DNA of 63,270 nucleotides, the filler included, from Licmophora abbreviata (taxonomy: Eukaryota): the NCBI GenBank assembly GCA_900291995.1. It is 14 parts of 14 records of this genome, joined end to end, with 100 filler letters (N's around TTAATTAATTAA, not from the genome) between each part and the next. Parts side by side here need not be neighbours in the genome. Positions count along the whole stretch, not along the records: positions 55,576 to 62,165 come from OLMU01001044.1; 13 more parts are not named here. One strand, given 5' to 3'. Below are positions 3,457-62,740 of the stretch, piece after piece (position 1 is the first letter of the stretch; every line of letters starts with the position of its first letter). The notes beneath the pieces are model-generated. The model worked only from the letters and a program-made list of their open reading frames with translations, had not been told where the DNA came from and ran no database searches. Position numbers and translations under genes: made by a program.

Positions 3457-3556
3457 NNNNNNNNNNNNNNNNNNNNNNNNNNNNNNNNNNNNNNNNNNNN
3501 TTAATTAATTAANNNNNNNNNNNNNNNNNNNNNNNNNNNNNNNNNNNNNNNNNNNN
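3457..3556. other. Artificial scaffold linker. Identical linkers at 7079-7178, 10219-10318, 15254-15353, 18087-18186, 33465-33564, 37338-37437, 41094-41193, 45553-45652, 46726-46825, 52132-52231, 55476-55575, 62166-62265
   Basis: 44 N + TTAATTAATTAA (stops in all six frames) + 44 N. Confidence 0.99.
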
Positions 3557-10218: not shown

Positions 10219-10318
10219 NNNNNNNNNNNNNNNNNNNNNNNNNNNNNNNNNNNNNNNNNNNNTTAATTAATTAANNNNNNNNNNNNNNNNNNNNNNNNNN
10301 NNNNNNNNNNNNNNNNNN

Positions 10319-15253: not shown

Positions 15254-15353
15254 NNNNNNNNNNNNNNNNNNNNNNNNNNNNNNNNNNNNNNNNNNNNTTA
15301 ATTAATTAANNNNNNNNNNNNNNNNNNNNNNNNNNNNNNNNNNNNNNNNNNNN

Positions 15354-18086: not shown

Positions 18087-18186
18087 NNNNNNNNNNNNNN
18101 NNNNNNNNNNNNNNNNNNNNNNNNNNNNNNTTAATTAATTAANNNNNNNNNNNNNNNNNNNNNNNNNNNNNNNNNNNNNNNNNNNN

Positions 18187-33118: not shown

Positions 33119-34508
33119 TCAGAGCACATAGCGCGACAGATCGGCGGATTTCATCAGCTCGCCCAGATTGGCATCGACAAAGGCCGCATCGACCGTGACA
33201 GTATCGCCGGCCCGATCCGGGGCGGTGAAGCTCAGCTCTTCGAACACCCGCTCCATCACGGTGTAAAGCCGCCGCGCGCCGATATTCTCGACCGATTGAT
33301 TGACCTCGGCGGCGATTTTGGCCAGCGCCGCGATGCCATCCTCGGTGAACGTGACGGTGACATCCTCGGTTCCCATGAGCGCGGTATATTGCCGGGTCAG
33401 CGCATTGTCGGTCTCGGTCAGGATGCGCACGAAATCCTCTTCGGTGAGGGCGCGCAGCTCGACCNNNNNNNNNNNNNNNNNNNNNNNNNNNNNNNNNNNN
33501 NNNNNNNNTTAATTAATTAANNNNNNNNNNNNNNNNNNNNNNNNNNNNNNNNNNNNNNNNNNNNTGAAGCTCGGGGAGTAGATCCGAGGGTTTGGCGATA
33601 TGGAAGGCGCCAGAGGCGATGAACAGGATATGGTCGGTCTTGACCGGGCCGTATTTGGTGGACACGGTCGTGCCTTCGATCAGGGGCAGCAGATCGCGCT
33701 GCACGCCTTCGCGGCTGACATCGCCGCCGCGCGCATCCGAGCGGGCGCAGACCTTGTCGATTTCGTCCAGAAAGACGATGCCGTTCTGTTCGACCGCTTC
33801 GAGTGCTGTCTTGTGGACGGTGTCGTCATCCAGCAGCTTGTCGGCCTCTTCGCTGATGAGCGCCTCGTAGCTTTCGGAGACGGTCATCTTCTTGCGCACG
33901 GTGCGCCCGCCGAATGCTTTTCCGAAGATATCGCCGAGATTCATCATCCCCATCTGGCTGCCGGGCTGACCGGGAATGTCCATCATGCCGAGGGGGTTGG
34001 ATTGATCGGCGACATCCAGTTCGATCACGGTGTCGTCCAGCAGGCCGTCGCGCAGTTTCTTGCGAAACATCTCGCGCGTGGACTCGCGGGCGTCTTCGCC
34101 GGCGATGGCGGCGATCACCCGGTCTTCGGCCTGTTGATGGGCCTTTGATTTGACATCCTCGCGCATGTAGTCGCGGGTCTGTGCGATGGCGCTGTCGACC
34201 AGATCGCGGATGATCTGTTCGACATCGCGCCCGACATAGCCGACTTCGGTGAACTTGGTCGCTTCGACCTTGATGAAGGGCGCGCGGGCGAGTTTGGCCA
34301 GACGGCGGGAAATCTCGGTCTTGCCGACGCCGGTGGGGCCGATCATCAGGATGTTCTTGGGATACACCTCGTCGCGCAGATCGTCGGCCAGCTGCTTGCG
34401 CCGCCAGCGGTTGCGCAGGGCCACGGCGGTGGCGCGCTTGGCGTCCTTCTGGCCGATGATGAAACGATCGAGTTCCGAGACGATCTCGCGCGGGGTCAGG
34501 TCGGTCAT
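33119..34508 (-). CDS. hslU: ATP-dependent protease ATPase HslU, interrupted by linker
   Basis: [50 protein letters not shown]. Confidence 0.97.
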
Positions 34509-36726: not shown

Positions 36727-39700
36727 TCAAGCGATTGGCGTGTCACGCAGCGCCTTTGTCACAAGATCGTGCGGCAACAGGGTCAGCGTGGCGCTGCGTG
36801 TCCAGAGAAGACCGGTTTCCACGGGTCGATCAGGATAGATCAGGGCAAGAGCATGCGCATAGGCGCCCATCTGCCGCAAAAGCGCCGTGGGCACATCCTC
36901 GGCCGTGTCGGGAATGCCGGCGTTGGTCTTGAAATCGACGGCAAGAACCCGGTCGGGGGAGATCAGAAGCCGGTCGATGATCCCGTGAATTCGGCGGCCA
37001 CCCAGGGCATCGAGGCTGGCCGAGACAGGCACCTCGGATAGCGCGTCGGGCTGGAACAGAAACTGAAGCGACGGTTTGGTAAGCACCTTGTCGGCTTCGG
37101 CCAGGAGCAGGCGAAGTTCCTCGCCCTCAGCCGCATCAGAGCCGTTCAACAAAAGCTTCTCGGCTGTCTCTGGCCAGTCGGATTGCGGCACGGTGGGCAA
37201 AAATTCGAGCAGACGGTGGATCTGCCGACCGCGGCGCTTGGCGGCATCCTCATCAAGCCCGCGCTCGTCCGGCAGCGCCTTGTCACCGCCCAGATCGGAC
37301 GGTTTGAGGGTTTCGGGCGGCAGGACCGGAGGAGGTGNNNNNNNNNNNNNNNNNNNNNNNNNNNNNNNNNNNNNNNNNNNNTTAATTAATTAANNNNNNN
37401 NNNNNNNNNNNNNNNNNNNNNNNNNNNNNNNNNNNNNCGCAGGCAGGGGCGCGGTGGCGTGCGTCGTATCCGCAGGCGGATCAGAGACTGTTCCAGCCCA
37501 ATCGCCATGTTCCAGCCGCAGGCCCTGTCCCAGATCGAAATCATGAGCGGTGGCGCCAGCCGCTTGCAGACCGGCCTGCACCTTTTCATACCAAGCCTCG
37601 CCATTCTTTCCCAGATCGCCGGCAGCGGCCACGATCAACCATGTTTCGGCGCGGGTCATCGCGACATAGAGCAGGCGATCCCGTTCCGCGCGCTCGGCGT
37701 TGCGGGCGGCATCACTGGCGCGCACAATCGCGGCGGGCGCCTCGCCGCTGGCGCTGCGCCAGAAGGCGGTTCCGTTGCTGGTCGTGATCTGATCGCGGAT
37801 CCGGATATCGCGCTTGGCGGTATCGGGCAGGATGACCACGGGCGCTTCGAGCCCCTTGGCGCCATGCACCGTCATCACCCGGACCCTGTTTCCGGCGCTG
37901 TCCATCTGGCGCTTGATTTCCAGATCGTCGGTTTCCATCCAGACCAGAAACCCCGTCAGACTGTCCACGGCGCGCTGTTCATAGGCCATCGCCTGCATCA
38001 ACAGCGCGTCGATGCCATCCTCGGCCTCGGCGCCAAGGCGGGCCAGCAGTTTGCGGCGCCCGTCGTGGCGGGTCAGGATGCGTTCGATCAGATCATAGGG
38101 GCGCAGGTAATCGGCCTTGCGGCGCAGATCGTCCAGAATGGCCATGGTTTCGGGAAAATTCGATGCCCGGTCGCGAAGCGCCGCCCAAAGATAGCGCTGC
38201 GTGCGCTTATGGGCGAGATCGAAAAGCTGCGCCTCGGACCAGCCGAAGAGCGGCGAGCGCAGGGCGGTGGCGAGCGACAGGTCATCCTCGGGCGTGGCGA
38301 GAAAGGACAGGAGCGCCGCCAGATCCTTGACCGCCAGTTCCGCCCCCACCTTGAGCCGGTCTGCCCCTGCAATGGGCAGGTTTTGTGTCTTGCATTCGCG
38401 GATCAGCTCGTGAAACAGGCTCGAGCGGCGTTGCACCAGGATCAGGATATCGCCGGGCCGGATCGGTCGCAGGCCCGAGGGAGAGTCCTTGTCGGGAATG
38501 GGCTGTTTGTCGTCCACCATGCGGCGGATCGTGCGGGCGATCTGACGGGCGAGAAGCGTGGCGGGATCGTTGGCGGCCTTCACATCCACCGGCATGTGCC
38601 AGTCGGGATCCTCGTCCTGATCGGGCTTGTCGATCACGGGCCACAGATCGACCCGGCCGGGCAGATCGGATTTGAACGCCTTGTGACCCTGTTCAGGCGT
38701 AAACCCGCTGTCACGGCTATGGGCAAAGGTGTGATCGACAAGGTCTAGAATGGCGCTGGAGGAGCGGAACGAATATTCCATCTCCATGTCCTGAAGCGGC
38801 TGGCCGGTGGCGTGCAGACGGGTGGCGAAATCCCCCTTCATGCGGTCGAATTCGTCCGGATCGGCGCCCTGGAAGGAATAGATCGACTGTTTCTTGTCGC
38901 CCACCACGAAGATCGTGCGCGTCACGTCGGCGCGCGCACCCTGACCGCTGGTGAATTCCTGCGCCAGACGTTCGATCACCTGCCATTGCACGGGGCTGGT
39001 ATCCTGTGCCTCGTCCACAAGAATATGGTCGATACCGCCATCCAGCCGGAAGAGAACCCAGGCCGCGACGGCGGGATCGGTGAGCAATTGACGCGCGCGC
39101 AGGATCAGATCGTCGAAATCCAGCCAGCCGCGCAGGGCCTTGGCGCGGTCATAGGCGGTGAGAAAGATGCGGGCAAATTCGTGCAGCGTGCGAGTTTTCT
39201 GGATCGTGGCAAGGGCCAGCCGGGCTTCGCGGGCCTCTTCGACGCGGGCCATCCACTGATTGATCTGCGGCATGATCGCATCAAGCGCGGTGCGGACTGC
39301 CTTGGTTGGAAAAGAGTCTATCTTGGCGGAAAACGGCTCTTTCGCGCCTTCACCAAAGAGAAAGATGGATTCGAGAACAGGCAGTGCAGAGGCGTCCAGC
39401 CTATCGATGGATGCAATGCGCAGGGCGGCTTTCTGGTCATTGGTGCTGCTGGCCCGAAGCGCCGGGATCAGTTGGTCCAACAGGGTCTGTTCGCTGCCCA
39501 GGAATACGCGTGCGGTGATGTCATCAAGCGTCAGGCTGCCGGGCTGGCCTAGGACCTGGGCCAGTGTGTCATCGCTGCACGGGGTGTCGAACAGGGTGCG
39601 GTGCCGGACGATTTCCGCGGTGATATCGTCAAGGGATTCGCCGCCATAATGCCGAGCGAAGGCATAAAGCGTGGCGGCGTCGGGGCCGCTGGCGATGGCT

Positions 39701-40182: not shown

Positions 40183-42161
40183 CAGCGCAGCTCTGCCGTG
40201 TCGGGGGGATCGGTGATGTCCCATTCGCCGAAGCGGGCCAATTGATCGTAATCGCCCTTGTCGGCCTTCTTGAACACGGCGCGGCGGGCGGTATAGCCGC
40301 GATCCGGTTCGAGATAGGCGCGCATCAGGGCTTCGAATTCGATCCAGACTTTCTGCACGGGCTCTTCGTCCAATGGGGCCAAAACAGTCTCTGGTTTGCT
40401 GCCCAGGCCGATGAACTGGGCGCGCGCGACTTGGGACGGGGCGAGCTGACCGAAGCCTGCCTGTTCGGCGATTGCGGCTTCCAGCAAAAGCTGCCGGTCG
40501 AAATATTTCTGTTCCTTGGCGCTGGGCGGTTTGCCGGTCTTGTAGTCGTAGATGTGAAGGCTGCCGGTGGCGTCTATGTCGATGCGGTCGGCCTTGGCCT
40601 TGAGGGTGACGCCAAGATCATCGAGCGTGGCGATGCCGGATTGTTCCAGCGCGCAAGGTTGGGCGATCTGACGGCGGTCGAACTCACCGTCGATGAACCA
40701 GTCGGCAACACGGTCCATGCGCGCACGCCAGATGGCACGCGCCTCGGCCCAAGGGACGTTTTGGGCAAGAACAGACTCGGTTACCGCCATCAGGTGATCG
40801 CGGGTGCAGAGTGCCGCATCGTGCTGGCTGTCCTTGATGAAACGGTCCAGAACCTCGTGCAGGACAGTGCCGCGCAGCAGCGCGTCCGGCACTTTCATCA
40901 GTGGATCAAGCGGCCGCAACCGCAGGACATGGCGCGCATAGATGGCATAGGGATCGCGGATCAGGCGCTTGATTTCCGTCACGGAAAACTGGCGGGGACG
41001 TGCCGCCAGCGGCGGGCAGGGCGAGGGGCGCTTTTCGGCGGGCACATAACCGGGCTCTTCAAGGCTGGCGACCAGTCGGAGCCAATGCGCGCCNNNNNNN
41101 NNNNNNNNNNNNNNNNNNNNNNNNNNNNNNNNNNNNNTTAATTAATTAANNNNNNNNNNNNNNNNNNNNNNNNNNNNNNNNNNNNNNNNNNNNAGCAGGG
41201 TGATATCCTGCGTGGCGTGGTCAAGATCGGTGAGGCCCGGCCCATCCTGCAGCCATTGATCGGTCACAGGCGCGGGCCGCAAGGCCAGCGACAAGAGCCG
41301 GTTGCGGGCAGGACAGGCGGGGCTGTCCGGTGTCCAGCGGGCGATCTCGGCGGGCGAGAGGCCGAGCTTTCCCATCAGATCGGCGAAACGGTATTGCGGA
41401 TGATCCTCGGAGAGCATCGCATCGTCCAGCGCGCCCCAGACATGCGCCGGCATGTCGACATCGAAGCCGGGAAGAAGGATTGCGCCTTGCGGCAGTTTGG
41501 ACACCGCCTGCATCAGAAGCTGGGTGGCGCCGCGCGATCCGGTGGATCCGGCGATGATGATCGGGTGATCGGGAGGCGTCTCTTGCCACGTTTCGATTAC
41601 ATGCTCGATCACCAGACGCTGGCGGGTTTCGACATCGGGATGCTCGGTGCCAACGTCGAAATAGTGTCTGACAATGCCCAAAAAGGCTGTGATCCGATCC
41701 CAATGACCGGATTGATCGGTGACATCTAGCCCCTCGATCACATCCGGAGAGACGCCTTCGCCATGCATTTCGTCCATCAGCGATGCAAGGCTGTCGGCCA
41801 ATGCATAAAGCGAGGAGCGCGACGCGATGTCGGGCTGTCTGTCCAGCAGCGAAGAGACAAGCTGTGTCAGCTCGAGCCGACGGCGGAGCGGCGGCACGGG
41901 ATCGGGGATATGCGCCAGATCCCAATGCTCGCCCAGATCGGTGAGCAATTCGATCCGTGGCAGCAACAGCGCCGGACCCTGATCGAAGAGCGCCCGGATG
42001 CGGCGCGCCATGCGCCGGGTGTTGACGATCACCTGCACGCGGGCCAGCGCCTCGGGCGGCTGGTCGGCGTGGCGGGCAAGCAGGCCATCGACCAGCGCGC
42101 GGGGGAAATCCACGCCAAGCGGCACGCCAAAGACGCGGGGGCGGTCGGTGGGATCAAACAT
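40182..42161 (-). CDS. addB: Double-strand break repair protein AddB, middle missing in gap
   Basis: AGSTGSRG, DHPQY, SVTEIKRLIRDPYAIYA, ADRID, DYKTG. Confidence 0.93.
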
Positions 42162-44356: not shown

Positions 44357-45970
44357 TCAGCCTGCGGCCTGACATGACGTGTCGATCAGGACAGTGGCCG
44401 TGCAGTCGGCCATGCTCAGCATGGCGGACCCACCGGTGAGAGGAGACAGGCGACACCGCATCGGATGGCCTGCGCGGCTGTAAAGCACGGATTCCACAGG
44501 CTCGGTCAGGCTATTGCCCGACAGGAGGGTTTCCGCCTGCGGCCAGAAGGTATCGTCGGGGATATGCTCGCGACAGATCGCGATGAGAGCGGGCACGGAC
44601 AGCTCTGCAAGGCTGCTGTCCGGGTCGATACCGAGGACATCGGAACAGCGCTTGTTGCACAGCAAAAGCAGCTTGTTGGGCGAAATCACCGCGATGGCAT
44701 CGGGCAATTGATCCAGTACCGCCTGCCGCAGATTGAGCTGCGTCCGAAACCGGCGGGTCAGGGCGATCTCGTCCGATATATCCTCGAACAGAAAGGCCAC
44801 GGCGCCATCGGGATGCGGGCGACCCGTGACACGGTAGGTCAGCCCCGAGGGCAGCGACCAGGTGTCCTGATAGAGCCCGTCGGAAGCGGTGGCGACGATC
44901 TCGCTGATCCGGGTGCGCCAGTTGGCGTAGTTCTTTGGCTCCGGCATGATCTGCCGGTCGCGCAGATTGTCGAAAACCCCGATCAGGTCTGGGCGCGCAC
45001 TGAGAAATTCGGCCGAAAGCCCGGTCAGATCGACAAAGGCGGGATTGAACAGGGCCAGCCTTTGCTGGCGGTCGAACACGGCAAGCCCGGTCGTCAGATT
45101 GGCGAAGGTCTTGGTCAGCGTCTGGACGAAATCGCGGCGCACGGTTTCGGCCTGGATGACCTTGGTGATATCGGTGACATAATGGAACAGGTCGTTGCCG
45201 ACGCGGGTAGAATTGACTTCGTACCATTGGGGTGTCCCGTCGGTGGCGTTCTTGAACGAAATCCGGTCGATAAGAGAGCCTTCGCATTCGGGCACGATCT
45301 TCCGGTCGGGGAGAAGTTGCCCGCGCTCGTCCTCGGGGAGGTTGGAGAAGGCGAGGTTCTGCCAGATGACCCGCCCGTCCATCGATGAAATCGACAAGCC
45401 GAAAGGGGCATGGCGCAGAGCGGTGTTCCAATTTTCGAGCCGCGCGGAGAGGCGTAGATTGTCATGGCGTTCGGCCGGGCTTGGAACCGTCGGATCGCTG
45501 AGAGTGATGCGGCAGACCGGACCGATGGGGGCTATGTGCAGCATGGCTTGGTNNNNNNNNNNNNNNNNNNNNNNNNNNNNNNNNNNNNNNNNNNNNTTAA
45601 TTAATTAANNNNNNNNNNNNNNNNNNNNNNNNNNNNNNNNNNNNNNNNNNNNCACGCTTTTGAGCACCAGCCCGTCACCTGCAGGCACGAGAGCGACATC
45701 GGTGGGAAACTCGGGGAACCTGTCACAGAACCAGTCGCGCAGCGATGACCAATCCGACAGGGTCTGGGGGAGCAAGCGTTCGGGCAGATCATGATCGACA
45801 ATGGCGCCATTCTCGAACAGGAAATGCGCGGATTTATCTTGCGGCGGCGACAGTCTTGCCTGCCTGTTCTGTTGTCCGATCAGCAGGCCATAAACCCACA
45901 GGATCCCAAGCGCGGTCGCGCTCGAGACGATGGGAAGCAAAAACCACCCGAAAGCGGGAACTGTCATCAC
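44357..45970 (-). CDS. Membrane-anchored PAS-domain protein (Rhodobacterales short DivL-like), interrupted by linker
   Basis: N-terminal TM; FVQTLTKTFA..GLAVFD..LALFNPAF, FDNLRDRQIMPEPKNY, GRPHPDGAVAFLFEDI; between regB and tsaE. Confidence 0.75.
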
Positions 45971-46040: not shown

Positions 46041-47565
46041 TCAGGCGCGGATCGGCGGGTTATCCCCGGTGGGTTGGCGGCTGTCCGAGGTTTCGGCCTC
46101 CATCCTGTGGCGCGGCCATGTCACCTCGATCACGGCGCCGGTGCGGTCCGGATGGCCGCCTGCCCCGTCTTTCTGCGCATCCGTGGCATTGGCAAAGCTC
46201 AGATCTGCGCCGGAGCGTTCCAGCAGTGTCTTGGCGATGAACAGGCCAAGCCCCATGCCTTCGTAGCCCGGACGGCGCGGATCGGAAGCCGGGCCGCGGC
46301 GGCGCATGAAGGGCTCGCCGATCCGGGCCAGAACATGCTGTGGATAGCCACGCCCGTCATCCATGATCCGCAAGCTGATATGCGTCTCGGACCAGCGGCT
46401 TTCGATCCAGACATTGCCGCGCGCGAAATCAACGGCATTCTGGATCAGGTTCCGAAGGCCATGGATCACTTCGGGGCGGCGATGGATGGTTGGCTGACTG
46501 TCGAGCGGCCCGGACGAGGAGACATGCTCGAAATGAATCATCTTGCCGCGATCCATATGCGGGTCGGCGGCTTCTTCTATCAGGGCGGTCAGGGGCGCCT
46601 TGCGCAGGTGCAGATCGTCCTTGCCGGCGCGGCCCATCGACCGGAGGATATCGCGGCAGCGATCCGCCTGTTCGCTGATGAGAACGGCATCCTGTCGCAG
46701 CTCTTCATTGTCCGACAGCTCTTGGNNNNNNNNNNNNNNNNNNNNNNNNNNNNNNNNNNNNNNNNNNNNTTAATTAATTAANNNNNNNNNNNNNNNNNNN
46801 NNNNNNNNNNNNNNNNNNNNNNNNNAGCTCTTCATTGTCCGACAGCTCTTGGGCCAGTTCCGAGCTGGTCAGCTTGATCGTGGCCAGGGGCGTGCCAAGC
46901 TCGTGTGCGGCGGCGGCGACGACACCGCCCAGATCGGTCAGCTTCTGCTCGCGGGCCAGCGCCATCTGGGTGGCCTGAAGCGCGTTCGACATGGCGTCCA
47001 TTTCGGACACGATCCAGCGGGAATAGACGCCAAGAAAGACGATCGCAATCACGATCGCCGCCCAGTTTCCGAAGAGGAACACATCCGGCATCCGCAGGAT
47101 AAAGCCTTGCTCGGTGCGCAGGGGCAGATGGAACTGCGTCAGGATCGACACGATCAGGATCGCCATCAACCCAAGAAACAGCGTGGACCTTGATGACAGC
47201 GCCGAGGCCGACACCGTCACCGGCCCCACGATCAAGATCGAGAACGGATTGTTCAGCCCGCCGGTCAGATACAGCATCAGGCCCAGTTGCAGCATGTCGA
47301 ACAGAACCACCAGCAGGGTTTCGGTTTCGGACAGACGCTTGTTTTCCGGATAGACGAAGGAGGCCACAAGGTTCGAAATGACGGCAACCCCGACCACCAG
47401 ATAGCATAGCCCGATTTCGAGGTTCAGGTTATACAGCCGCTGCGCCACGATCAGTGCCGAAACTTGCCCGGCAATGGCCCACCAGCGCAGCAGGATCAGC
47501 GTGCGCAGGCGAATCCAGTTCCCGCGACTGCGGGATTTGAAGGCGCTGGGGGAAATATCGGACAT
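46041..47565 (-). CDS. regB: Redox sensor histidine kinase RegB/PrrB, interrupted by linker
   Basis: LRTLILLRW, LTGGLNNPF, AAAAHELGTPL, NLIQNAVDFA, DDGRG, GMGLGLFIA; 27-nt overlap across gap. Confidence 0.95.
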
Positions 47566-52034: not shown

Positions 52035-52231
52035 AACCTGGCCAAAGACATGACTGGCGCCCGTCCCTTGCGGCGGGCGCTCTCATTTGAGGCGTATTCT
52101 AAGCATTACGGATTTGGCCGGGATGGTCGATNNNNNNNNNNNNNNNNNNNNNNNNNNNNNNNNNNNNNNNNNNNNTTAATTAATTAANNNNNNNNNNNNN
52201 NNNNNNNNNNNNNNNNNNNNNNNNNNNNNNN

Positions 52232-54832: not shown

Positions 54833-56342
54833 GTGGCTGAGAAAAAGCGCTCAAGAAACAAGTCGGAGAAGCCGACCGACACATCGGCCGCTGACACCGC
54901 GACCGATGCCACAAACACCAGCGCCCCCAAGTCGGCACCTGAGCACGATCACGATACGGCCGTATCGCAGACGTCGGAAACATCACCTGACGCCGCCGAC
55001 GCCGCGACCCCGGAAGACAGCCAGCCTGCGGAACCCGAACCCGAACGCGAACCCGACGCGGACAAACCTTTGGATCCTGAGACGAAAGGCGACGAGACAG
55101 ACCTTGGGGATGAAGCGCCGGACCCCACCGACACAGTGGACCAAGAGCCAGAGGAAACGCCCGACGCGACCGATGACACCCGTGACACGGTTGAAAAACC
55201 CGCGCCTGTCGCGCCCCCTCCCGAACAAGTCGTTGTCCGCAAGGGCGGGTTTTTCGCGATGCTTCTGGGCGGCGTCGCGGCAGCGGCCATCGGCTTTGGT
55301 ATGGCGCGCTATGTCTTGCCTCAGGATTTCCCGTTTCCCGCAAGTGGTGGTGACAGTGCCGCCATTCAGGATCTGACCCAAAGAATCGAAGCGCAATCGC
55401 AGGACATGACGCAACTGTCCAGCCGTATCGACACGCTTGCCGACGGCTCGGAGCCGGGCGCGGTGACCGGCGAGANNNNNNNNNNNNNNNNNNNNNNNNN
55501 NNNNNNNNNNNNNNNNNNNTTAATTAATTAANNNNNNNNNNNNNNNNNNNNNNNNNNNNNNNNNNNNNNNNNNNNAGCCGGGCGCGGTGACCGGCGAGAT
55601 GGACAGCCTTACGGCAGCAATAGACACTGTATCGGGCCGCGTGAACGAGATTGCGACCCGGCTTGACGCGTTCGACGCGCGCCTGTCCGGTCTTGAAGCG
55701 CGCGGAACGTCAGAATCTGGCGACTCGCAAGCCGCACTGTCCGCCTACGAACAGGAATTGCGCGAATTGCAGGCGTCCATCGCCCAGCAAAAAGCCGAGA
55801 TCTCGGCGATCGCAGAAGACGCTCGCGCCAAGGAAGAAAGCGCCGTTGAAACCGCTCAGGCCGCCATGCGCCGTGCCGCACTGACGCGCATTCAGACGGC
55901 TTTGGATGCCGGCACCCCGTTCGACGCGGCACTTGCCGATCTTGAAGCGGCGGATGTCGCTGTGCCCGAAGCGCTGGCCAGTGCCGCTGCCGAAGGTGTG
56001 CCGACGCAAGCCAGCCTGACCGAAACCTTCCCCGATGCCGCGCGCCGGGCGCTGGCCGCCTCGCGCGCCACTGTGGACGACGCGGGCGCCGGTGGTCTTG
56101 GCGGGTTTCTGCGCTCTCAGCTTGGGGCCAGATCGCTTGAGCCGCGCGAAGGCGATGACCCGGATGCAGTTCTGTCACGCGCCGAAGCTGCCGCGCGAGA
56201 GGGTCGTCTGAACGATGCGCTTGCTGAAATCGAAACATTGCCCGAAGAGGGCCGTGCCGAATTGTCCGACTGGTCGGCCGAGGCCGCGCGGCGTCTGGAT
56301 GCTCTGGCTGCGGCCGAAGCGCTGGCGCAGGACTTAAACTGA
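54833..56342 (+). CDS. COG4223 / mitofilin (Mic60)-like inner membrane protein, interrupted by linker
   Basis: Acidic N-terminus, TM (GGFFAMLLGGVAAAAIG), coiled coil, ARSLEPREGDDPDAVLSRAE; 24-nt overlap across gap; hemD-hemY context. Confidence 0.8.
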
Positions 56343-56361
56343 CACCGAAAGGGCAAAAAAG

Positions 56362-57852
56362 ATGTTGTGGTCGATTTTAAAGATTGTCGGTTTCATCGCC
56401 CTTGTTTCGGCGGCGACACTCGGCGCAGCCCATCTGATCGAGATGGAAGGTGGTGTCAGGATCGTGTTCGGCGGTCTGGAATTCAACCTGACCCCGATCA
56501 AAGCGGTGATTGCATTGATCGTTCTGGTGATCGCGCTTTGGCTTTTGCTCAAACTGGTGTCTTTGCTGGTCGCAACGCTCAAGTTCATCAACGGCGACGA
56601 AACAGCGATTTCGCGCTATTTTGACAAGAACCGGCAGGAAAAAGGGTTTCGGGCGCTGTCCGAAGGCATGATGGCGCTGGCTTCGGGTGAGGGTGACCTG
56701 GCCATGTCCAAGGCCAACAAGGCGGAAAAATACCTGCGCAAACCCGATCTGACCAATCTTCTCACGGCGCAGGCTGCCGAATTGTCGGGCGACACCCGAA
56801 AGGCCGAATTGGTCTACAAGAAGTTGCTCAAGGATGACCGGACCCGCTTTGTCGGTGTGCGTGGCTTGATGAAGCAGAAACTGGCTGCCGGCGACACCGA
56901 AACCGCGTTGAAGCTTGCCAAGACCGCCTTCGCGCTCAAGCCCCGGCATGGCGAGGTGCAGGATGCCCTGTTGCGGCTTCAGGCCCAGACAGCAGACTGG
57001 AAAGGTGCGCGCGAGACCCTGAATGCCAAGTTGAAATACGGCAGCTTGCCGCGTGATCTTCACAAGCGCCGTGACGCGGTTCTGGCCCTTTCCGAGGCCA
57101 AGGACGTGCTTGACGAAGGCAAGGACATCGAAGCCCGCGAGGCCGCGATCGAGGCCAATAGATTGTCGCCTGATCTGGTCCCGGCGGCTGTTCTGGCGGC
57201 GCGAAGCTATATTGCTCAAGGGTCCAAACGCTATGCGACGCGGGTCATCAAGAAGGCATGGGGCGTGCACCCGCATCCCGATCTTGCCGCCGCTTTCGCC
57301 GAGATCGAACCAGATGAAACCCCGGCGCAGCGTCTCAAGCGCTTTTCCAAGCTGATCGCGATGCATCCCGATAATCGCGAAACCAAGCTGCTCAAGGCCG
57401 AACTGCACCTTGCCGCCGAAGATTTCCCTGCCGCCCGCCGTGCGCTTGGCGATCTGGTCGAAACGGATCCGGATGCGCGTGTGCTGACCATCATGGCCGC
57501 GATCGAACGCGGCGAGGGATCGTCGGACGCGGTGGTGAAAGGCTGGCTTGCGCGTGCATTGTCCGCGCCGCGCGGCCCGCAATGGGTCTGTGACAATTGT
57601 CAGCATATCCATGCGGAATGGGCGCCTGCCTGTGACCATTGCAACGCCTTCGACACGCTGACATGGAAGACACCCCCGGTCTCGACAATGACGACATCCA
57701 CCGGCATCGAAATGCTGCCCCTGATCGTCGGCGCGATCGAGCAAAAGCCCACTGAAGAAGAGCAGACCGAACTGGACGGGGATGACGTGCTCGATGCCGA
57801 AGTCGTTGAAGAAACCCCCGAGACGACGGACGAGGACCCCACCCGAAAATAG
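56362..57852 (+). CDS. HemY-family (TPR-like) membrane protein
   Basis: MLWSILKI, two TM segments, GDETAISRYF, HPHPDLA, WVCDNC..CDHC. Confidence 0.85.
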   Translation: MLWSILKIVGFIALVSAATLGAAHLIEMEGGVRIVFGGLEFNLTPIKAVIALIVLVIALWLLLKLVSLLVATLKFINGDETAISRYFDKNRQEKGFRALSEGMMALASGEGDLAMSKANKAEKYLRKPDLTNLLTAQAAELSGDTRKAELVYKKLLKDDRTRFVGVRGLMKQKLAAGDTETALKLAKTAFALKPRHGEVQDALLRLQAQTADWKGARETLNAKLKYGSLPRDLHKRRDAVLALSEAKDVLDEGKDIEAREAAIEANRLSPDLVPAAVLAARSYIAQGSKRYATRVIKKAWGVHPHPDLAAAFAEIEPDETPAQRLKRFSKLIAMHPDNRETKLLKAELHLAAEDFPAARRALGDLVETDPDARVLTIMAAIERGEGSSDAVVKGWLARALSAPRGPQWVCDNCQHIHAEWAPACDHCNAFDTLTWKTPPVSTMTTSTGIEMLPLIVGAIEQKPTEEEQTELDGDDVLDAEVVEETPETTDEDPTRK

Positions 57853-57855
57853 GAC

Positions 57856-57884
57856 TTCCCCCGCCCCCAAGCCGATGCTATAGG
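57856..57884 (+). promoter_or_regulatory. Putative promoter of the host tRNA-Thr
   Basis: TTCCCC-17 nt-TATAGG just upstream of the tRNA 5' end. Confidence 0.5.
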
Positions 57885-57897
57885 CCCGCAAAACAGG

Positions 57898-57938
57898 GCC
57901 GCTGTAGCTCAGCTGGTAGAGCACGTCATTCGTAATGA
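57898..57938 (+). pseudogene. 5' half of host tRNA-Thr(CGT), truncated just after the anticodon loop (island attachment junction)
   Basis: GCCGCTG-TA-GCTC-AGCTGGTA-GAGC-A-CGTCA-TTCGTAA-TGA, then non-tRNA sequence; no T arm or 3' acceptor strand. Confidence 0.92.
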
Positions 57939-58067
57939 GTGCTCAAGTAGATGTTTTTTCCTTATTTGTCAGCTGGTTAGAATTTTTCGAAGGCCACGTT
58001 TTCGAGAATATTTCGAGTATTCTCGGCTGCGCTTGGAAGGTGTCGATGAGCGTTCAAACGCCAAGCC

Positions 58068-59855
58068 TCAGTTGCCGTCGTCATTATGAGCAATTATCGC
58101 TTCGATCATCGAGAACACTCCTTCAAACCCGTCAAAAGCAGCCTCATCGAGGGAAGGAACAACTATTTCCGCGAATTCAGTCTTGCCTCCGATCACATCC
58201 TTGAAATGTGTTTCGTCAGCGAGTTCGTACTCAATCTTTTCCGGTCCAACCTTTGTAGATGCTTTCTTTCGCTTAAGCTTAAGTTTTGAGCCTTCGAGCT
58301 CAGTGGAGAGGTGCGCATCTCGGAAAAGAAACTCGATCGGTAGGTTTTGGTACTTCTTACACTGTTCCCTAAAATCCGGCGCGGGCAAACATGCGGCATA
58401 GGATTTCCCGTGCATCCCACGCTTTACAGAAAATCCACCGATATCGCTTTCGACAAAGTTCTTGTCGAGCTTGTAGGCGGCTATACCTTCGGGATCATAA
58501 TCGAACAGACCAATGACAGGGTGTGGGTGATCAGAAGCGACGCCCTTAAGGCGTATCGCCAACCGACCGGCACCACCGTCGCCAGATCCGGCGTTCTCGC
58601 CACCTGTTTCGCAACTCCGTATATCGAATGAAGGCACGCCGCCCCGAGTCTTTTCCCAGGCAGCAAGTAAGATTTTTGCGTCGGTTCTTCCTTCCGTCAA
58701 CACCACCGGTTTCGCGGTAACTTGCAACTCCGCCGTCAAGGCAGCAACTTCGCTCTCCGCTTTCTTCGCTCGTTCCTCCACCAGCGCGACTTCTTCAACT
58801 GCCTTAGCCACCGCCGGCAGATAGAAACCTTCGCCAATTGCTTGCTCTACATCGAACTTTTCGAGATCGCGACCTTGTATCGGGTCTGATACGCCCTGAT
58901 CGTTCTTTCTTACATAGAACTTTGCCGCATCATTATTGTCGAGAAGATAGAAAGAAGGGCTGTGTGTGGTCATGAACACCTGAACGCGTTCACTCTTGGC
59001 CAAGGTCAAAAGTCGCAACGCCTCAGATTGCGCAGCTACAAAATCGAGGGAGTTTTCCGGTTCCTCAAACCCCCAAATGTGAAAGTCAAACTTGTCCTTT
59101 TCAGAAATAAACTTGAGAAACTCAGGGATATGTCGGGCCTTAATTCCGTCACCCCTCTGGCGTGTCAGAGATTTGGGCCTAACACCGCCAGAGATATTTG
59201 TTTCAAAATCGAGAGACTGGAATAGCTGGCTAAGGCGAGTTGGTGGGCTGATCTTCGTGCTTGAAGAAACTTCGATGGGTAGGGTGTCGAACATCTCGTT
59301 TGTAAGGGCCTGCAATTCACCGGCGAACCCGTCGACCGCGGATTCAAACTCTGGCACACGAGCGACGGTTTCATGGATTCCGGATAGCAACATTTCGAAA
59401 ATTCTGATGTCTTTGACCGCCGGAATATAAATGAAGGAGATTTTGTTTATCAGGCGAGTCGCTATGTGTTTTTTGTTATTCGGAATGCTGTTCGAAATCT
59501 CCTCGTGATAGTTTTGCCCCCTCGAAACAGTCCATTGCCTCTTCACATAGAACTTCTTCCCCAAGGATGGTTGAAATGACTTTGGAGTATTGAACGTGAT
59601 TTTTACGTATAGAAACTTTCGGACATCTTCTGATGCCTCTGCCTCGTCTAATCTCTTGTCGCAAAAGTCTACATCGAAGTCGAATGGCTGGGCCAAATCT
59701 GGAGAGCCCGAAAAAAACAAGTTAAGAGCCCGAACAACATTGGATTTGCCAGAGTCGTTCTTGCCGAAAATTATGTTCAAATCTTCAAGGTGACGGAGTT
59801 TGAATTTGTAGAAACTCCGAAAATACGAAATCTCCACTTCATCTATGAGTTTCAA
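58068..59855 (-). CDS. OLD-family-like ABC ATPase + TOPRIM nuclease (candidate anti-phage effector)
   Basis: Walker A GKNDSGKS, signature-like RGDG, Walker B/D-loop WGFEEPENSL, H-loop TTHSP; TOPRIM VLTEGRTD, GG, LFDYD, IEFLF, GGKTEFA; TTG start with GGGAG RBS. Confidence 0.85.
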   Translation of the reverse strand: MKLIDEVEISYFRSFYKFKLRHLEDLNIIFGKNDSGKSNVVRALNLFFSGSPDLAQPFDFDVDFCDKRLDEAEASEDVRKFLYVKITFNTPKSFQPSLGKKFYVKRQWTVSRGQNYHEEISNSIPNNKKHIATRLINKISFIYIPAVKDIRIFEMLLSGIHETVARVPEFESAVDGFAGELQALTNEMFDTLPIEVSSSTKISPPTRLSQLFQSLDFETNISGGVRPKSLTRQRGDGIKARHIPEFLKFISEKDKFDFHIWGFEEPENSLDFVAAQSEALRLLTLAKSERVQVFMTTHSPSFYLLDNNDAAKFYVRKNDQGVSDPIQGRDLEKFDVEQAIGEGFYLPAVAKAVEEVALVEERAKKAESEVAALTAELQVTAKPVVLTEGRTDAKILLAAWEKTRGGVPSFDIRSCETGGENAGSGDGGAGRLAIRLKGVASDHPHPVIGLFDYDPEGIAAYKLDKNFVESDIGGFSVKRGMHGKSYAACLPAPDFREQCKKYQNLPIEFLFRDAHLSTELEGSKLKLKRKKASTKVGPEKIEYELADETHFKDVIGGKTEFAEIVVPSLDEAAFDGFEGVFSMIEAIIAHNDDGN

Positions 59856-60024
59856 ATCTTGCTCCCTGTTAGCTTCGAGGGCACCTTGTGTGCAGGTCTG
59901 ATGTTCCTCGATAACTATGTGGCGATATGCTAACTCAAGTTGAACTGCGGAAACAATATTACCTAGCGGTCGCTTGACTTAATGTGCCCAGAAGCACCCG
60001 CTGACCATACCAGTGTGTGGGAGA

Positions 60025-60100
60025 TGGTGCCGCATGAGGGACTTGAACCCCCGACCCATCGCTTACGAAGCGATTGCTCTACCAGCTGAGCTAATGCGGC
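60025..60100 (-). tRNA. tRNA-Thr(CGT), intact, island-encoded, CCA encoded
   Basis: GCCGCAT-TA-GCTC-AGCTGGTA-GAGC-A-ATCGC-TTCGTAA-GCGAT-GGGTC-GGGGG-TTCAAGT-CCCTC-ATGCGGC-A-CCA; 76 nt, all stems pair. Confidence 0.97.
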
Positions 60101-60110
60101 GACAGCCGTT

Positions 60111-60139
60111 CGTCTAGCGTTTGAGCGGCTGTCGCGCAA
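60111..60139 (-). promoter_or_regulatory. Putative promoter of the island tRNA-Thr
   Basis: Minus strand TTGCGC-17 nt-TAGACG, 10 nt before tRNA +1. Confidence 0.6.
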
Positions 60140-60146
60140 GGCAGAA

Positions 60147-60719
60147 TCAGAACGGGATATCCTCGTCGCCATCATCGAGGAACGAAGCATCGAACTCACG
60201 GTCGACCCATTCGCGTCGATCCTGTTCTTCACGTTCGCGCTCTGCCCGCGCTCGAGACGGGCGCTTACGTTCCAAATCGCGGATGAAGAACCAGTTCCCG
60301 CGCATCCGGTTCAACGACCATGGAATGGCACGAAGGTTCTCGGGAACATGCTTTCCGCGGATCACCACGTCACCGTCCTTGTTTTTGCCGACGAGTGGAA
60401 CGATGTGGTCTACCTCGTGCTTGATCCCGGTCCAAAAAGACAGGCTTTCCGCAGCCTCGAAGACATCGAGGATTTGCTGCTTTTCAGCGTCGGTCAGGTC
60501 GTCAGGGAGCGCGCCTAACTGTTTAGCGCGATACATCGCTGCTTCATGGCGACGGCGCACTCGATTCTTCCAGTAATACTTCTTGTCCTTAGACGGCTTT
60601 CCGCCGCTTGCCGCAGCATGGGCCTCGCGTAGTGCCTCATATTCGGCTGTTTCGCGTTCCGCCTCTTGAACTTCTTCGACTTCTGCGGGCGATAGCCCGG
60701 CATAGATTGCAAAGGTCAT
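60147..60719 (-). CDS. HNH endonuclease-like protein with acidic C-terminal DIPF tail
   Basis: HEVDHIVPL..GKHVPENLRAIP..LNRMRGN; ATG at 60719 with purine-rich RBS; ends FLDDGDEDIPF. Confidence 0.75.
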   Translation of the reverse strand: MTFAIYAGLSPAEVEEVQEAERETAEYEALREAHAAASGGKPSKDKKYYWKNRVRRRHEAAMYRAKQLGALPDDLTDAEKQQILDVFEAAESLSFWTGIKHEVDHIVPLVGKNKDGDVVIRGKHVPENLRAIPWSLNRMRGNWFFIRDLERKRPSRARAEREREEQDRREWVDREFDASFLDDGDEDIPF

Positions 60720-60844
60720 GCCTCTACCCCTCTGTTGTGGAGGCGCCAGAAACCGACACCTCACGGTGAATGGGCTTCCTGTAGGCAATCTGCGATTTGC
60801 GGATTGGGGGACGGCCTCGGAACAGGTGCCATCCAACACCATTG

Positions 60845-60873
60845 GAAGTAGGAAGTCCGCAGCTGTGAGTCAA
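60845..60873 (-). promoter_or_regulatory. Putative promoter of the HNH gene
   Basis: Minus strand TTGACT-17 nt-TACTTC. Confidence 0.55.
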
Positions 60874-60892
60874 GAAAGGGCAAGCCCTTCTT

Positions 60893-61318
60893 TCAATCTG
60901 GCTTGCTGGAGTTGCTGTCGTCGCTCAAAAATTGGCGAATGCGATGCGCCAGCACACGATCCCGAGTCTCGCATTCCCAGATGGTCAACGCATCCCAACC
61001 AGCAGTCTTCAAGGCTGCCTGCGCTGCATCGTCCCGCGCGCGGTTTCGGTCGATCTTTTTCCGCCAATAGTCACGGTTGGTTTTGGGCTGGCGCGCACCT
61101 CGTTTGCAGTTGTGCCCGTGCCAAAAACACCCATGGACAAATATGACCTTGCGACGCGGGCCGAAAACGAGATCCGGACTGCCGGGAAGGTCACGACGAT
61201 GAAGTCGGTATCGAAATCCTAGTGCGTGTACCAATCGGCGCACGATCATTTCCGGCGCGGTGTCTTTCGATTTAACCGCCCGCATCGTCCGGGATCGAAG
61301 GCTATCAGTCTTCGCCAC
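60893..61318 (-). CDS. vsr: Very-short-patch repair endonuclease
   Basis: RSRTMRAVKSKDTAPE, LPGSPD, FVHGCFWHGH, YWRKKIDRNRARD, GW..IWEC; start codon uncertain (GTG 61318). Confidence 0.93.
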   Translation of the reverse strand: MAKTDSLRSRTMRAVKSKDTAPEMIVRRLVHALGFRYRLHRRDLPGSPDLVFGPRRKVIFVHGCFWHGHNCKRGARQPKTNRDYWRKKIDRNRARDDAAQAALKTAGWDALTIWECETRDRVLAHRIRQFLSDDSNSSKPD

Positions 61319-62021
61319 CGTCTTCGGTCTCAACAGAGGCAGCGCCGCCGAGCGCGACGTATCGCCGTTCCGCGAGCCATTGCAGGCGCTTCGCTTGCGT
61401 CAACAGCACGCGGCGCAAACCGCCCTGTACCTTGCGCTCGGAAATCACCTGCGCAAGACGCGATATGATGAGCGCGCGACGCGCGATGCGGAAGTCAGGA
61501 TGTGACCTGATCTTGTGGACATCATCAGAAACGAGCCGGTACCGCAGCGACGGCGGTTTCGTGATCGTGACTTCGGGCGAAGGCGGGTCCTTCTCGTTCA
61601 GAACCGCCTTAAACTGGCTGCCCGCAATCGCCTCCTGATACACGAAGTCTTCAAGGGCGTTCAGATGCTTTTTCGCATCCTCGTCCGACGCTCCCGTCTT
61701 CTGAAACTGCGGCAGCGGCCACACCTCGATTTCATACACCTCGAAAGGGTCGAGGACGGACATGGCGACAGCATCGGTGCGTTGGTTGGTCAGGTGGCGA
61801 CGGATGCGCGTTGAAATCTTCTCTTTCGTCTGTCCGACGTAGATCGGTTCGCCGTCATAGTCGAAGAACGCGTAAACTCCCCATTTGAACGCGCCGACCG
61901 GACGCTGTTTGCCTGCCACCGGGTCGTCGAATTTCTGAGCAAGGAACTGAACCAGATTCGCTCGAAGGTCCTCGGTCTCGAATGGCGGAAAGTTTACGTC
62001 GTCGGGATTGCGTTCTGTCAT
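61305..62021 (-). CDS. GIY-YIG nuclease, probable type II restriction endonuclease
   Basis: WGVYAFFDYDGEPIYVGQT..RIRRH..LE..LN; lies between C5 methyltransferase and vsr. Confidence 0.75.
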   Translation of the reverse strand: MTERNPDDVNFPPFETEDLRANLVQFLAQKFDDPVAGKQRPVGAFKWGVYAFFDYDGEPIYVGQTKEKISTRIRRHLTNQRTDAVAMSVLDPFEVYEIEVWPLPQFQKTGASDEDAKKHLNALEDFVYQEAIAGSQFKAVLNEKDPPSPEVTITKPPSLRYRLVSDDVHKIRSHPDFRIARRALIISRLAQVISERKVQGGLRRVLLTQAKRLQWLAERRYVALGGAASVETEDGGED

Positions 62022-62040
62022 GCCCGATTTCTACTAGAAA

Positions 62041-62165
62041 TCAGGCTGCTATGGCGAGTCGATTCCGTTTGAGGATCGGTTCGAAGACCGAAGCAGCCAA
62101 GTGACGCACGACCGGTACGGCAACACCGTCGCCCGCGAGTTTGTAAGCGTCGTTATAGCGTTCGG
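62041..62165 (-). CDS. DNA (cytosine-5) methyltransferase, 3' fragment only
   Basis: Manual translation ERYNDAYKLAGDGVAVPVVRHLAASVFEPILKRNRLAIAA* (motif X variant of YxxxGNAV); next to GIY-YIG and vsr. Confidence 0.8.
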
Positions 62166-62265
62166 NNNNNNNNNNNNNNNNNNNNNNNNNNNNNNNNNNN
62201 NNNNNNNNNTTAATTAATTAANNNNNNNNNNNNNNNNNNNNNNNNNNNNNNNNNNNNNNNNNNNN

Positions 62266-62740
62266 CCTCGACCGCGCCCATGGGAAACAGCGACACCGGG
62301 CAGCCTTCGGGCAGGTCCAGCCGCAATTCGGGTGGTGCCAGGAACACCAGCTCTTTGGTGCCCAGCAAAAGGCAGCGCCGATGGGCAAAGCGCACCAGCG
62401 TGTTATAGGCGGCCAGTTGATGATCCAGCCGCGCGCCGGAAAACCCCACGCCGACGATCAGGGGGGCCGCGACATTGGCCATGCATTTGTCGAAATCGGT
62501 GCTGTCCTGATCCGGGATATGGTGCAGACTTCCGGGGGCCAGCTGCCCGCGCGCCCAGTCCGACAGCGAATCGAAATCGCCGATCACCGCCTCGGGCCGT
62601 GCGCCGTTCACCAGCGCCGCATCGGCCCCGCCATCCGCCGCGATGACCCTTGGCGCCACTGCGCGCGCGCGGTCGAGCATGGATTTGTCCACCTCTGCGC
62701 CACCGATCAGGGTCACTGGCTCTGTCGTGTTGACAATCAT
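62266..62740 (-). CDS. thiN: Thiamine pyrophosphokinase, 3' part in gap
   Basis: IAADGGA, VIGDFDS, DQDSTDFDK, GARLDH. Confidence 0.9.

Follow-up and report, generated by a model that had tools for sequence, protein, structure and literature searches.

Probable break-and-replace of a tRNA-Thr(CGU) gene beside an OLD-family nuclease gene in a marine Rhodobacteraceae contig

Introduction

How does a genome keep reading a codon when foreign DNA has entered the tRNA gene that decodes it and has not rebuilt that gene at the point of entry? This question is raised by a 63,270-nt stretch of DNA from the Licmophora abbreviata assembly GCA_900291995.1, hereafter the window, in which a tRNA-Thr(CGU) gene downstream of hemY stops just past its anticodon loop and a second, complete tRNA-Thr(CGU) lies further on, on the opposite strand, next to a gene for an OLD-family nuclease. 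An initial annotation of this locus proposed that the second tRNA and the nuclease form a tRNA-swap defense or addiction module. Our analysis separates two parts of that proposal. The breaking of the host tRNA together with a same-anticodon replacement is well supported by its recurrence in other genomes, and we favor, with some reservation, the reading that the locus is the left (attL-like) junction of a decaying break-and-replace integrative element. The OLD gene would be a separate cargo.

The finding is confined to one 6.6-kb contig (55576-62165) of a bacterium closely related to Roseovarius litoreus DSM 28249 (labels L001 and G001), with which its HemY protein is 99% identical. The other labels used most often below are L018 for R. 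amoyensis, L036 for R. lutimaris and L028 for R. marisflavi. Two broader scans, one of the family and one of the class, each sampled 401 genomes.

The host tRNA gene is broken past its anticodon loop

On its left, the ancestral tRNA-Thr(CGU) locus is flanked by the conserved gene hemY (56362..57852, + strand; Pfam HemY_N, 4.8e-28). ARAGORN places tRNA-Thr(cgt) directly 3' of hemY on the + strand in 23 of 42 relatives' loci; the remainder comprise two loci with the tRNA on the minus strand after hemY, three with tRNA-Thr(cgt) elsewhere in the locus and 14 with none. The window retains a truncated version of this gene (57898..57938, + strand), covering tRNA positions 1-41 and identical at 41/41 nucleotides to the R. 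litoreus gene (L001 11537-11577). The part kept comprises the 5' strand of the acceptor stem, the D arm, the 5' strand of the anticodon stem, and the anticodon loop with three further nucleotides. The first differing base is at 57939, a G in the window and a T in the intact R. litoreus gene; given identity up to position 41 and this mismatch, the break therefore lies 3 nt past the anticodon loop, exactly where the initial annotation had put it. Neither ARAGORN nor Rfam calls a tRNA at 57898-57938, the DNA that follows position 41 is unrelated to the tRNA, and the host-type 3' half was not found anywhere in the window at up to three mismatches. The further claim that the host gene is not rebuilt at this junction is thereby borne out, and what is seen is an integration junction inside a tRNA gene with no tRNA restored at it, as in break-and-replace integration.

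A comparison with the empty locus of a relative had been proposed as a check, and R. litoreus provides it. The left flank of the junction is 96% identical to the R. litoreus locus over 938 nt, and this closest relative has an intact tRNA gene and none of the inserted DNA: 57939-62165 has no match in its genome except similarity at the level of tRNA sequence.

The last 10 nt shared with the intact tRNA, TTCGTAATGA at 57929..57938 (+ strand), correspond to tRNA positions 32-41 and form the putative crossover site. We infer from them a common core of about 10 bp, with no attachment site on the element (attP) and no right junction (attR) seen. The foreign DNA begins with a non-coding left end (57939..58067), which opens with the hexamer GTGCTC (57939-57944) and contains the motif CGTTTTCGAGAAT at 57997-58009. 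The hexamer is an inverted repeat of tRNA positions 22-27, so that the junction reads GAGCAC-g-TCA[TTCGTAA]TGA-GTGCTC; the extended hairpin that this would allow folds no better than shuffled sequences (z = -1.64).

A complete tRNA-Thr(CGU) lies on the opposite strand

The only tRNA that ARAGORN detects in the window is a complete tRNA-Thr(CGU) at 60025..60100 (- strand; called as cgt; Rfam tRNA, 70.2 bits against a gathering score of 29), the likely replacement of the broken host gene. It lies 2.1 kb inside the foreign DNA and is co-oriented with its neighbors, an HNH gene on one side and the ATPase-Toprim gene of the OLD nuclease on the other, all on the minus strand, just as first described. 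Its anticodon is that of the disrupted gene, and the closest relative lacks the DNA that lies to either side of it.

This tRNA and the host type have different bases at 16 of 76 positions, namely 6, 7, 66 and 67, all ten positions of the anticodon stem, 57 and 65. Fifteen of the differences fall in stems, and all eight altered pairs remain standard, seven of them having changed on both sides. With so many differences and pairing kept throughout, the island tRNA is therefore not a duplication of the attachment site, a point on which the initial annotation was right; it looks, from its sequence, like a selected and functional tRNA. The codon it would serve is in use: across 11 host genes in the window, 80 of the 291 threonine codons are ACG.

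Upstream of the tRNA lies a promoter-like block (60101..60146, - strand) composed of TTGCGC, about 17 nt, and CTAGAC. A homologous block precedes the opposite-strand tRNA-Thr(CGU) in six genes, those of the window, L018, L036, L039, L003 and L048, where a -35-like TTGNNN and a -10-like element form invariant columns (n = 6). A scan with the sigma-70 consensus found no promoter upstream of the island tRNA. The claim that the tRNA has its own promoter thus stands as far as the conserved block goes, which is its sole support, and fails on the consensus scan. RNAalifold predicts no pairs in the leader upstream of the opposite-strand tRNAs, where a conserved hairpin was sought.

The junction and an opposite-strand tRNA-Thr(CGU) recur in other genomes

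The same junction is present in at least three other Rhodobacteraceae genomes, in each case without the OLD gene: L018, L036 and G392:C2. Screening all 80 hemY loci for tRNA halves first revealed this arrangement elsewhere. In R. amoyensis (L018), a decayed 5' fragment of the tRNA comes after hemY; it ends in CATTCGTAATGA, runs directly into GTGCTC, and has the motif TTTCGAGAAT nearby. R. lutimaris (L036) has the same structure, with the anticodon-loop region of the fragment more diverged and the junction more decayed, and both genomes carry a tRNA-Thr(CGU) on the opposite strand beyond the junction. In G392:C2 the hexamer and the motif are again present, with a tRNA-Thr(CGU) on the opposite strand 0.8 kb away. 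Discounting later insertions, the tRNA lies 0.26-0.8 kb from the junction in this set. A fourth locus, L039, has a tRNA-Thr(CGU) on the opposite strand, a variant of the TTTCGAGAAT motif and a fragment that is decayed but extends further into the tRNA than the window-type break. The 3' end of the HNH gene is common to the window, L018 and L036, and a remnant of it also lies upstream of the tRNA in G392. The 5' fragment is pristine in the window, whereas it is decayed in the other species.

This arrangement is rare. At up to three mismatches, the junction pattern was found in one of 147 Roseovarius genomes. The scan of 401 family genomes returned four matches, of which one, G392:C2, is a real junction; the other three are unrelated sequence with no tRNA context. 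A 17-mer spanning the junction has 11 exact matches in viral contigs, which we attribute to chance, as they have no tRNA context and seven are copies of one unrelated sequence.

The genomic complement of isoacceptors bears directly on the replacement. R. litoreus (G001) and the genomes G799, G800 and G801 each have exactly one gene of the tRNA-Thr(CGU) type; in the latter three, which carry the broken fragment, this sole CGU isoacceptor is the opposite-strand copy. Together with the intact gene of R. litoreus and the recurrence of junction and module, this upholds the view that foreign DNA interrupts the host tRNA-Thr(CGU). The related claim, that the cargo tRNA is a same-anticodon replacement with a rewritten anticodon stem, fares well in its first half, given the single CGU gene of G799-G801, and holds in its second half for every element-borne copy other than the L003 and L048 ones. 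In these two loci a tRNA-Thr(CGU) stands directly 3' of hemY on the minus strand (L003 11533-11608; L048 11532-11607), with the promoter block of the window and no 5' fragment, and the next genes are a mutT-like NUDIX gene, argJ and a peptidyl-prolyl isomerase gene (PPIase). The L003 tRNA is identical to the host type; that of L048 keeps the host-type anticodon stem and differs in the acceptor and T stems. The element tRNA of L036 and G392 is, for its part, identical to the native hemY-linked gene of L067.

Several of these loci have features of their own. In G392:C2 (L141 10475-19822) the whole module, comprising the 5' fragment, the 0.8-kb interval, the tRNA and the HNH remnant, is inverted relative to hemY, and genes for an FGGY kinase and an RTX-repeat protein lie between hemY and the module. 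In R. lutimaris, a classical 9.4-kb island (L036 11798-21234) sits within the module, between two exact 16-nt copies, in direct orientation, of the 3' end of the opposite-strand tRNA. Its genes specify a tyrosine integrase (DUF6538 with a weak Phage_integrase match), a resolvase, an RNase H and a SIR2_2 protein of 1095 aa. The interval between element end and tRNA is there occupied by this integrase/SIR2 island and not by OLD.

A second recurrent structure involves the same tRNA. At L028 11535-11729, L029 11529-11732, L062 11612-11815, L011 204-398 (-) and L061 1658-1785, a tRNA-Thr(CGU) 5' part ending in or just after the anticodon loop is followed by a conserved spacer, TAGCGGGTCC...CTAGTAGGGCCATAGTAGGG, about 85-90 nt long, after which comes a complete, co-oriented tRNA-Thr(CGU). 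This may be another break-and-replace family, one that places its tRNA directly behind the host promoter; Rfam finds no match in the spacer. In R. marisflavi (L028 12209-20418), the tRNA-Thr(CGU) is followed by a type I restriction-modification (R-M) system (HsdM, HsdS, HsdR), between whose S and R genes lie an AAA_15/AAA_21 ATPase gene (416 aa) and a 210-aa open reading frame (ORF) without a family match.

Integrative element or chromosomal rearrangement

In our reading of this pattern, members of one element family have integrated repeatedly and site-specifically, each time at an anticodon-loop core of about 10 bp and with the tRNA not rebuilt. The element would target the anticodon loop of the hemY-linked tRNA-Thr(CGU). 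Recombination at the short core TTCGTAATGA would then join tRNA positions 1-41 to element DNA, a step that we regard as demonstrated at this junction, and because the tRNA sequence is not carried on in the element DNA, the junction destroys the host gene. Decoding of ACG would be upheld by the element's own tRNA-Thr(CGU), which would be carried a few hundred base pairs inside, on the opposite strand, behind its own promoter block and downstream of the HNH gene. Judging from the relatives, this tRNA would be kept while the rest of the element decays because it becomes the only CGU isoacceptor. Independent defense cassettes would later have gathered around the trapped tRNA, with OLD inserted in the interval from the element end to the 3' end of the tRNA, and a Dcm/GIY-YIG/Vsr R-M module upstream of the tRNA. 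The position of OLD beside the tRNA would then reflect where a cassette was inserted and not a common function.

Several observations weigh against this reading. Neither an integrase, attR, attP nor an excised form of the element was seen on the available contig, which ends at 62165; no recombinase was found on 57939-62165 and no integrase domain among the 57 other ORFs scanned in the window. The sole integrase in a related module, that of L036, belongs to the secondary classical island. The host-type tRNA in the opposite-strand position of L003 and L048 means that the rewritten anticodon stem is not universal. The intervals between junction and tRNA cannot be aligned across genomes beyond two short motifs: those of the window and G392 share the short CGTTTTCGAGAAT motif only, at a score that 2 of 200 shuffles reached, and those of L018 and L039 are also similar. 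A single orphan 3' half was found, that of G799:C63; its left arm is unlike the one predicted, and this half may belong to another island. Finally, the far flank of the tRNA in the decayed relatives consists of ordinary chromosomal genes that differ between species, and the G392 module is inverted as a whole relative to hemY; rearrangement of the chromosome has clearly played a part as well.

The orphan 3' half itself (L108, G799:C63, 563-638, - strand) starts exactly at TTCGTAATGA. It follows genes for a luciferase-like monooxygenase, a DUF3010 protein, a MerR protein and a pyridine-nucleotide-disulphide oxidoreductase, and gives way to AT-rich DNA and the contig end.

Could such a locus arise with no mobile element at all? 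A deletion or inversion ending in the anticodon loop might have brought a resident opposite-strand tRNA-Thr(CGU), with its defense cassettes, to hemY. Such an account needs neither integrase nor second junction, and none is seen; it accommodates the core genes on the far side of the tRNA in L036, L039, L018 and G392, the entire inversion of the G392 module, and the genes 5-9 kb to the right of the + strand tRNA in L040, which lie inverted beside the opposite-strand tRNA in L036. The region is moreover a rearrangement hot spot whose flanks differ between species. R. litoreus, however, has a single tRNA-Thr(CGU) and none of the inserted DNA. The same break nucleotide, hexamer and motif also recur in genomes whose HemY proteins are only 69-77% identical and whose flanks differ, and random rearrangements would not repeat this. 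The break falls, in addition, in the anticodon loop, a classic crossover region for tRNA-targeting integrases. We therefore consider rearrangement alone an unlikely origin of the junction, albeit one with evidence on its side. A simple inversion between two tRNA copies was rejected, since it would leave two complete hybrid tRNAs and not a truncated one.

The OLD nuclease gene

The gene between the junction and the tRNA (58068..59855, - strand) encodes a 595-aa protein with an N-terminal ABC-type ATPase domain and a C-terminal Toprim domain (Pfam AAA_15, 4.6e-19; AAA_21, 1.2e-12; SMC_N). The PADLOC models for AriA, GajA and Old all match its N-terminal part, best of all the AriA model (1.9e-20); the Old model covers only about the N-terminal 50 of the 595 residues. 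Across 30 homologs, the Walker A residues G31-K37-S38 and the Walker B pair E264-E265 are invariant, as is a Toprim signature composed of E388-G389, D452-x-D454-x-x-G457 and E508, for which Pfam gives no Toprim match. An AlphaFold2 model (mean pLDDT 77.9) was compared with known structures using Foldseek and matches the retron-Eco8 OLD effector, the OLD protein of Thermus scotoductus (6p74) and GajA, in alignments of 495-603 columns (E 4e-15 to 1e-11). With the junction and the tRNA as its neighbors, the gene lacks the helicase partner of class 2, the retron of class 3 and the separate Toprim protein of class 4. On its modeled fold, the protein is an OLD-family nuclease of the single-gene, class 1-like kind, and it is most likely a stand-alone class 1 OLD abortive-infection nuclease, as predicted from these analyses.

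The gene has the marks of an insert. Its G+C content is 0.48, against 0.58 in the rest of the island and 0.62 in the host, and its orthologs are likewise GC-poor inserts. At least 60 OLD proteins of more than 60% identity exist, and genomic context was examined for two orthologs, L096 (73% identity) and L098 (65%). Each stands alone among housekeeping genes, and nucleotide homology with the window is limited to the ORF, with unrelated flanks. There is no tRNA around either, within 1.8 kb to the contig start and 6 kb downstream in L096, and within about 9 kb on each side in L098. None of six more distant homologs in the family has a tRNA-Thr nearby (one has a tRNA-Ser), and none of 15 homologs in viral contigs has a tRNA within 3 kb. 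A direct repeat of the tRNA 3' end around the OLD cassette was not found, the best local alignment scoring 14, a value that 36% of shuffles reached.

Other searches with the OLD protein gave no match in viral contigs, one locus in metagenome contigs, five weak partial matches on plasmids, and by sequence in the PDB only the RecF N-terminus. R. litoreus, which lacks the island, encodes a distant homolog (L090, G001:C1:301943-303400; 36% identity over residues 1-493, in a 610-aa frame) with no tRNA within 1.5 kb.

Are the tRNA and the nuclease functionally coupled?

The defense or addiction module first proposed would work by OLD cleaving host-type tRNA-Thr while the island tRNA, with its rewritten stem, resists, which would give protection or make the host dependent on the element. 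In its most specific form, the island tRNA would be an OLD-proof, "self-immune" isoacceptor: once triggered, OLD would cut the anticodon stems of host-type threonine tRNAs, the element's tRNA would survive, and decoding of ACG would be tied to the element, which would also have replaced the gene it destroyed. Such a tRNA would differ from one that a phage uses for counter-defense. The idea has precedents. The P2 OLD protein, of class 1, is reported to kill by cleaving within the anticodon stem of tRNA-Thr(UGU), with rescue by phage tRNA-Thr genes of altered stem (PMC12445682), and the AriB protein of PARIS is described as a Toprim tRNase that viral tRNAs escape (PMC11464382, PMC12409363). The arrangement in the window fits as well, in that an intact OLD gene lies 170 nt downstream of the tRNA, co-oriented with it, and all ten anticodon-stem positions of the tRNA differ from the host type.

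The comparative evidence points the other way. The linkage is unique to the window: a tRNA-Thr was sought at homologous loci and found at none of the 23 other OLD loci, neither at the two orthologs nor at the 21 distant homologs, and conversely, the tRNA module occurs without OLD in L018, L036, L039 and G392. In base composition the OLD ORF stands apart as a cassette, and the flanks of its orthologs are unrelated. The cleavage rule of P2 OLD, paired CNG motifs at positions 28-30 and 40-42, fits the Roseovarius tRNA-Thr(UGU), which has CUG and CAG there; neither the host-type nor the island-type CGU tRNA has a paired CNG motif of the kind described. The only published rule for a class 1 OLD tRNase thus predicts as target tRNA-Thr(UGU), whose anticodon differs from that of the neighboring tRNA, and a CGU tRNA cannot read ACA and so could not stand in for a UGU tRNA. 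DNA nicking is reported, moreover, for a further class 1 OLD (PMC12392090). The proposed functional module is not supported by these comparisons. A real functional link between tRNA and OLD appears improbable, as do the defense or addiction module as a whole and the self-immune isoacceptor. Based on the loci, the flanks, the base composition, the L036 island and the CNG rule, we treat OLD as separately acquired defense cargo in an insertion-prone interval.

The junction in independent assemblies

The window consists of 14 small contigs chained by 13 identical 100-nt linkers of the form N44-TTAATTAATTAA-N44, located at 3457-3556, 7079-7178, 10219-10318, 15254-15353, 18087-18186, 33465-33564, 37338-37437, 41094-41193, 45553-45652, 46726-46825, 52132-52231, 55476-55575 and 62166-62265. 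Because the window is a chain of draft contigs, adjacency across a linker is artificial for any finding on it. The last of these artificial linkers (62166..62265, no strand) ends the contig of the present locus; at 62266 a separate contig begins, which covers thiamin pyrophosphokinase and what lies past it and has a 96% match to a different R. litoreus contig.

The junction itself lies within a contig, and contigs of four public runs were placed on 55576-62165. Run X1, possibly the source of the assembly, contains the entire stretch within one 15.9-kb contig, which runs on for 5.4 kb past 62165. A second study contributes run X23, where a contig of 396 nt covers 57735-58130 with 0 differences and extends 204 nt to the left and 192 nt to the right of the junction. 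The 2163-nt contig of run X22 over 57917-60079 was not counted as bridging because just 22 nt of it lie to the left. Loose contig ends at 57898 and 57937/57938 run into sequence unlike the host 3' half, which is taken to be from tRNA genes of other organisms. No contig of an empty site was seen in the placed runs; the coverage gaps in X6 and X23 are uninformative. A chimera formed at sequence common to both tRNA genes, although conceivable in an assembly so fragmented (14 contigs in 63 kb) and with X22 contigs that break within both tRNA genes, is highly improbable, because the X23 contig bridges the junction and the same junction type recurs in independent assemblies of other species.

Relation to known systems

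The closest parallel is the tRNA-dependent lysogeny of actinobacteriophages, for which break-and-replace was proven in 2024. In the account of Guerrero-Bustamante and Hatfull (2024, PMC10865867), the phages concerned are Fionnbharth (K4), cluster L, Cain (K6), Gaia (X) and the Gordonia phages of CQ2/DL; their cores are 8-17 bp long, the tRNA is not reconstructed at the junction, and a cognate phage tRNA is required. The present locus resembles these in having its attachment site in a tRNA gene, a short core (about 10 bp inferred here, against 8-17 bp) and a same-anticodon tRNA near the attachment site. It is unlike them in its alphaproteobacterial host, in showing no phage genes (neither virion nor lysogeny genes), integrase or second junction on the 4.2 kb of foreign DNA available, and in that several relatives show only the decayed end state, where the element tRNA is now the resident gene. 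Within the Alphaproteobacteria, prophage-borne tRNA genes are reported to substitute for host genes in Sinorhizobium meliloti (PMC11476347; PMC12429752, on Mesorhizobium-phage-like prophages). There too, in an alphaproteobacterium, a host tRNA gene is reported to be knocked out by an integrated element, which brings in one similar to the tRNA genes of other taxa; genus, tRNA and element all differ from ours (PMC11476347).

For the nuclease, the nearest functional comparison is the Old protein of phage P2 (Govande et al. 2025, PMC12445682), which is described as using paired CNG motifs as the site at which it amputates the anticodon arm of tRNA-Thr(UGU). Like it, the window's nuclease is a single-gene ATPase-Toprim protein at the edge of an integrated element, and the working of the P2 system turns on a threonine tRNA and on variant anticodon stems. 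The main target of P2 Old is nevertheless the UGU tRNA, whereas the neighbor here is a CGU tRNA, and the rescuing tRNAs in the P2 case come from the attacked phage and not from the element with the Old gene. With PARIS, the protein shares an ATPase and a Toprim domain, and the AriA model is its best N-terminal PADLOC match, but AriA and AriB are two proteins and the window has one fused 595-aa ORF, and the whole-protein matches of the modeled fold are to OLD, GajA and the retron-Eco8 effector. Classical tRNA-linked islands offer a final comparison. Like them, the locus is a tRNA-linked defense hot spot, and L036 carries such an island inside its module; unlike them, the tRNA is not restored at the window junction, and there is no repeat of the tRNA 3' end around OLD.

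If the preferred reading, a decaying integrative element, is correct, the case extends the break-and-replace use of tRNA landing sites, also reported for Sinorhizobium prophages, to marine Rhodobacteraceae. The genomes would then form an evolutionary series leading from a fresh junction through a decayed element to a trapped replacement tRNA that is the sole gene for its anticodon, and the likely long-term outcome is an element tRNA that persists in a new orientation and with a new promoter. In this way a mobile element that decays but leaves its tRNA behind can bring about turnover among tRNA genes that are supposed to be stable. The locus further illustrates how small defense cassettes (OLD, R-M with Vsr, SIR2) may build up around a trapped tRNA, and an OLD gene beside a threonine tRNA with a rewritten stem offers, despite the contrary comparative evidence, a cheap and well-defined case for testing which substrates class 1 OLD proteins accept.

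Neighboring nuclease genes

Upstream of the tRNA lies the HNH-type endonuclease gene (60147..60842, - strand; phrog_1035, endonuclease VII, 1.5e-9), with a likely start at 60719 that gives a protein of 190 aa. The translation contains the motif DHIVPL...N...N and ends in an acidic tail, ...DEDIPF, which we take to resemble the C-terminus of SSB. The protein has no match in Pfam, PADLOC, NCBIfam or, by sequence, the PDB; it has none in viral contigs and four weak partial matches in phage records. In two other Roseovarius loci, HNH homologs of 55% and 34% identity also stand beside tRNA genes: at L102 (1501-2133) next to tRNA-Asn (2254-2328), and at L103 (1501-1905) next to tRNA-Thr(tgt) (1272-1347).

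Beyond the HNH gene follow a Vsr very-short-patch repair endonuclease gene (60893..61333, - strand; TIGR00632, 1.1e-43; PADLOC Vsr, 2.7e-26; phrog_13076, 1.3e-52) and a gene for a GIY-YIG nuclease (61305..62021, - strand; Pfam GIY-YIG, 1.1e-6), probably a type II restriction enzyme. Homologs of the latter with 78-84% identity occur in three of the 401 family genomes. Since each of these follows directly after a C5-cytosine methylase gene, GIY-YIG and Vsr are probably part of an R-M module, whose methylase would be expected beyond 62165. No integrase was found among the ORFs scanned around the three two-gene methylase/GIY-YIG cassettes (L132 14342-16502, L134 13938-15987 and L136 1506-3600). 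These cassettes adjoin tRNA-Gly(CCC) or tRNA-Ala(GGC) and lie among housekeeping genes.

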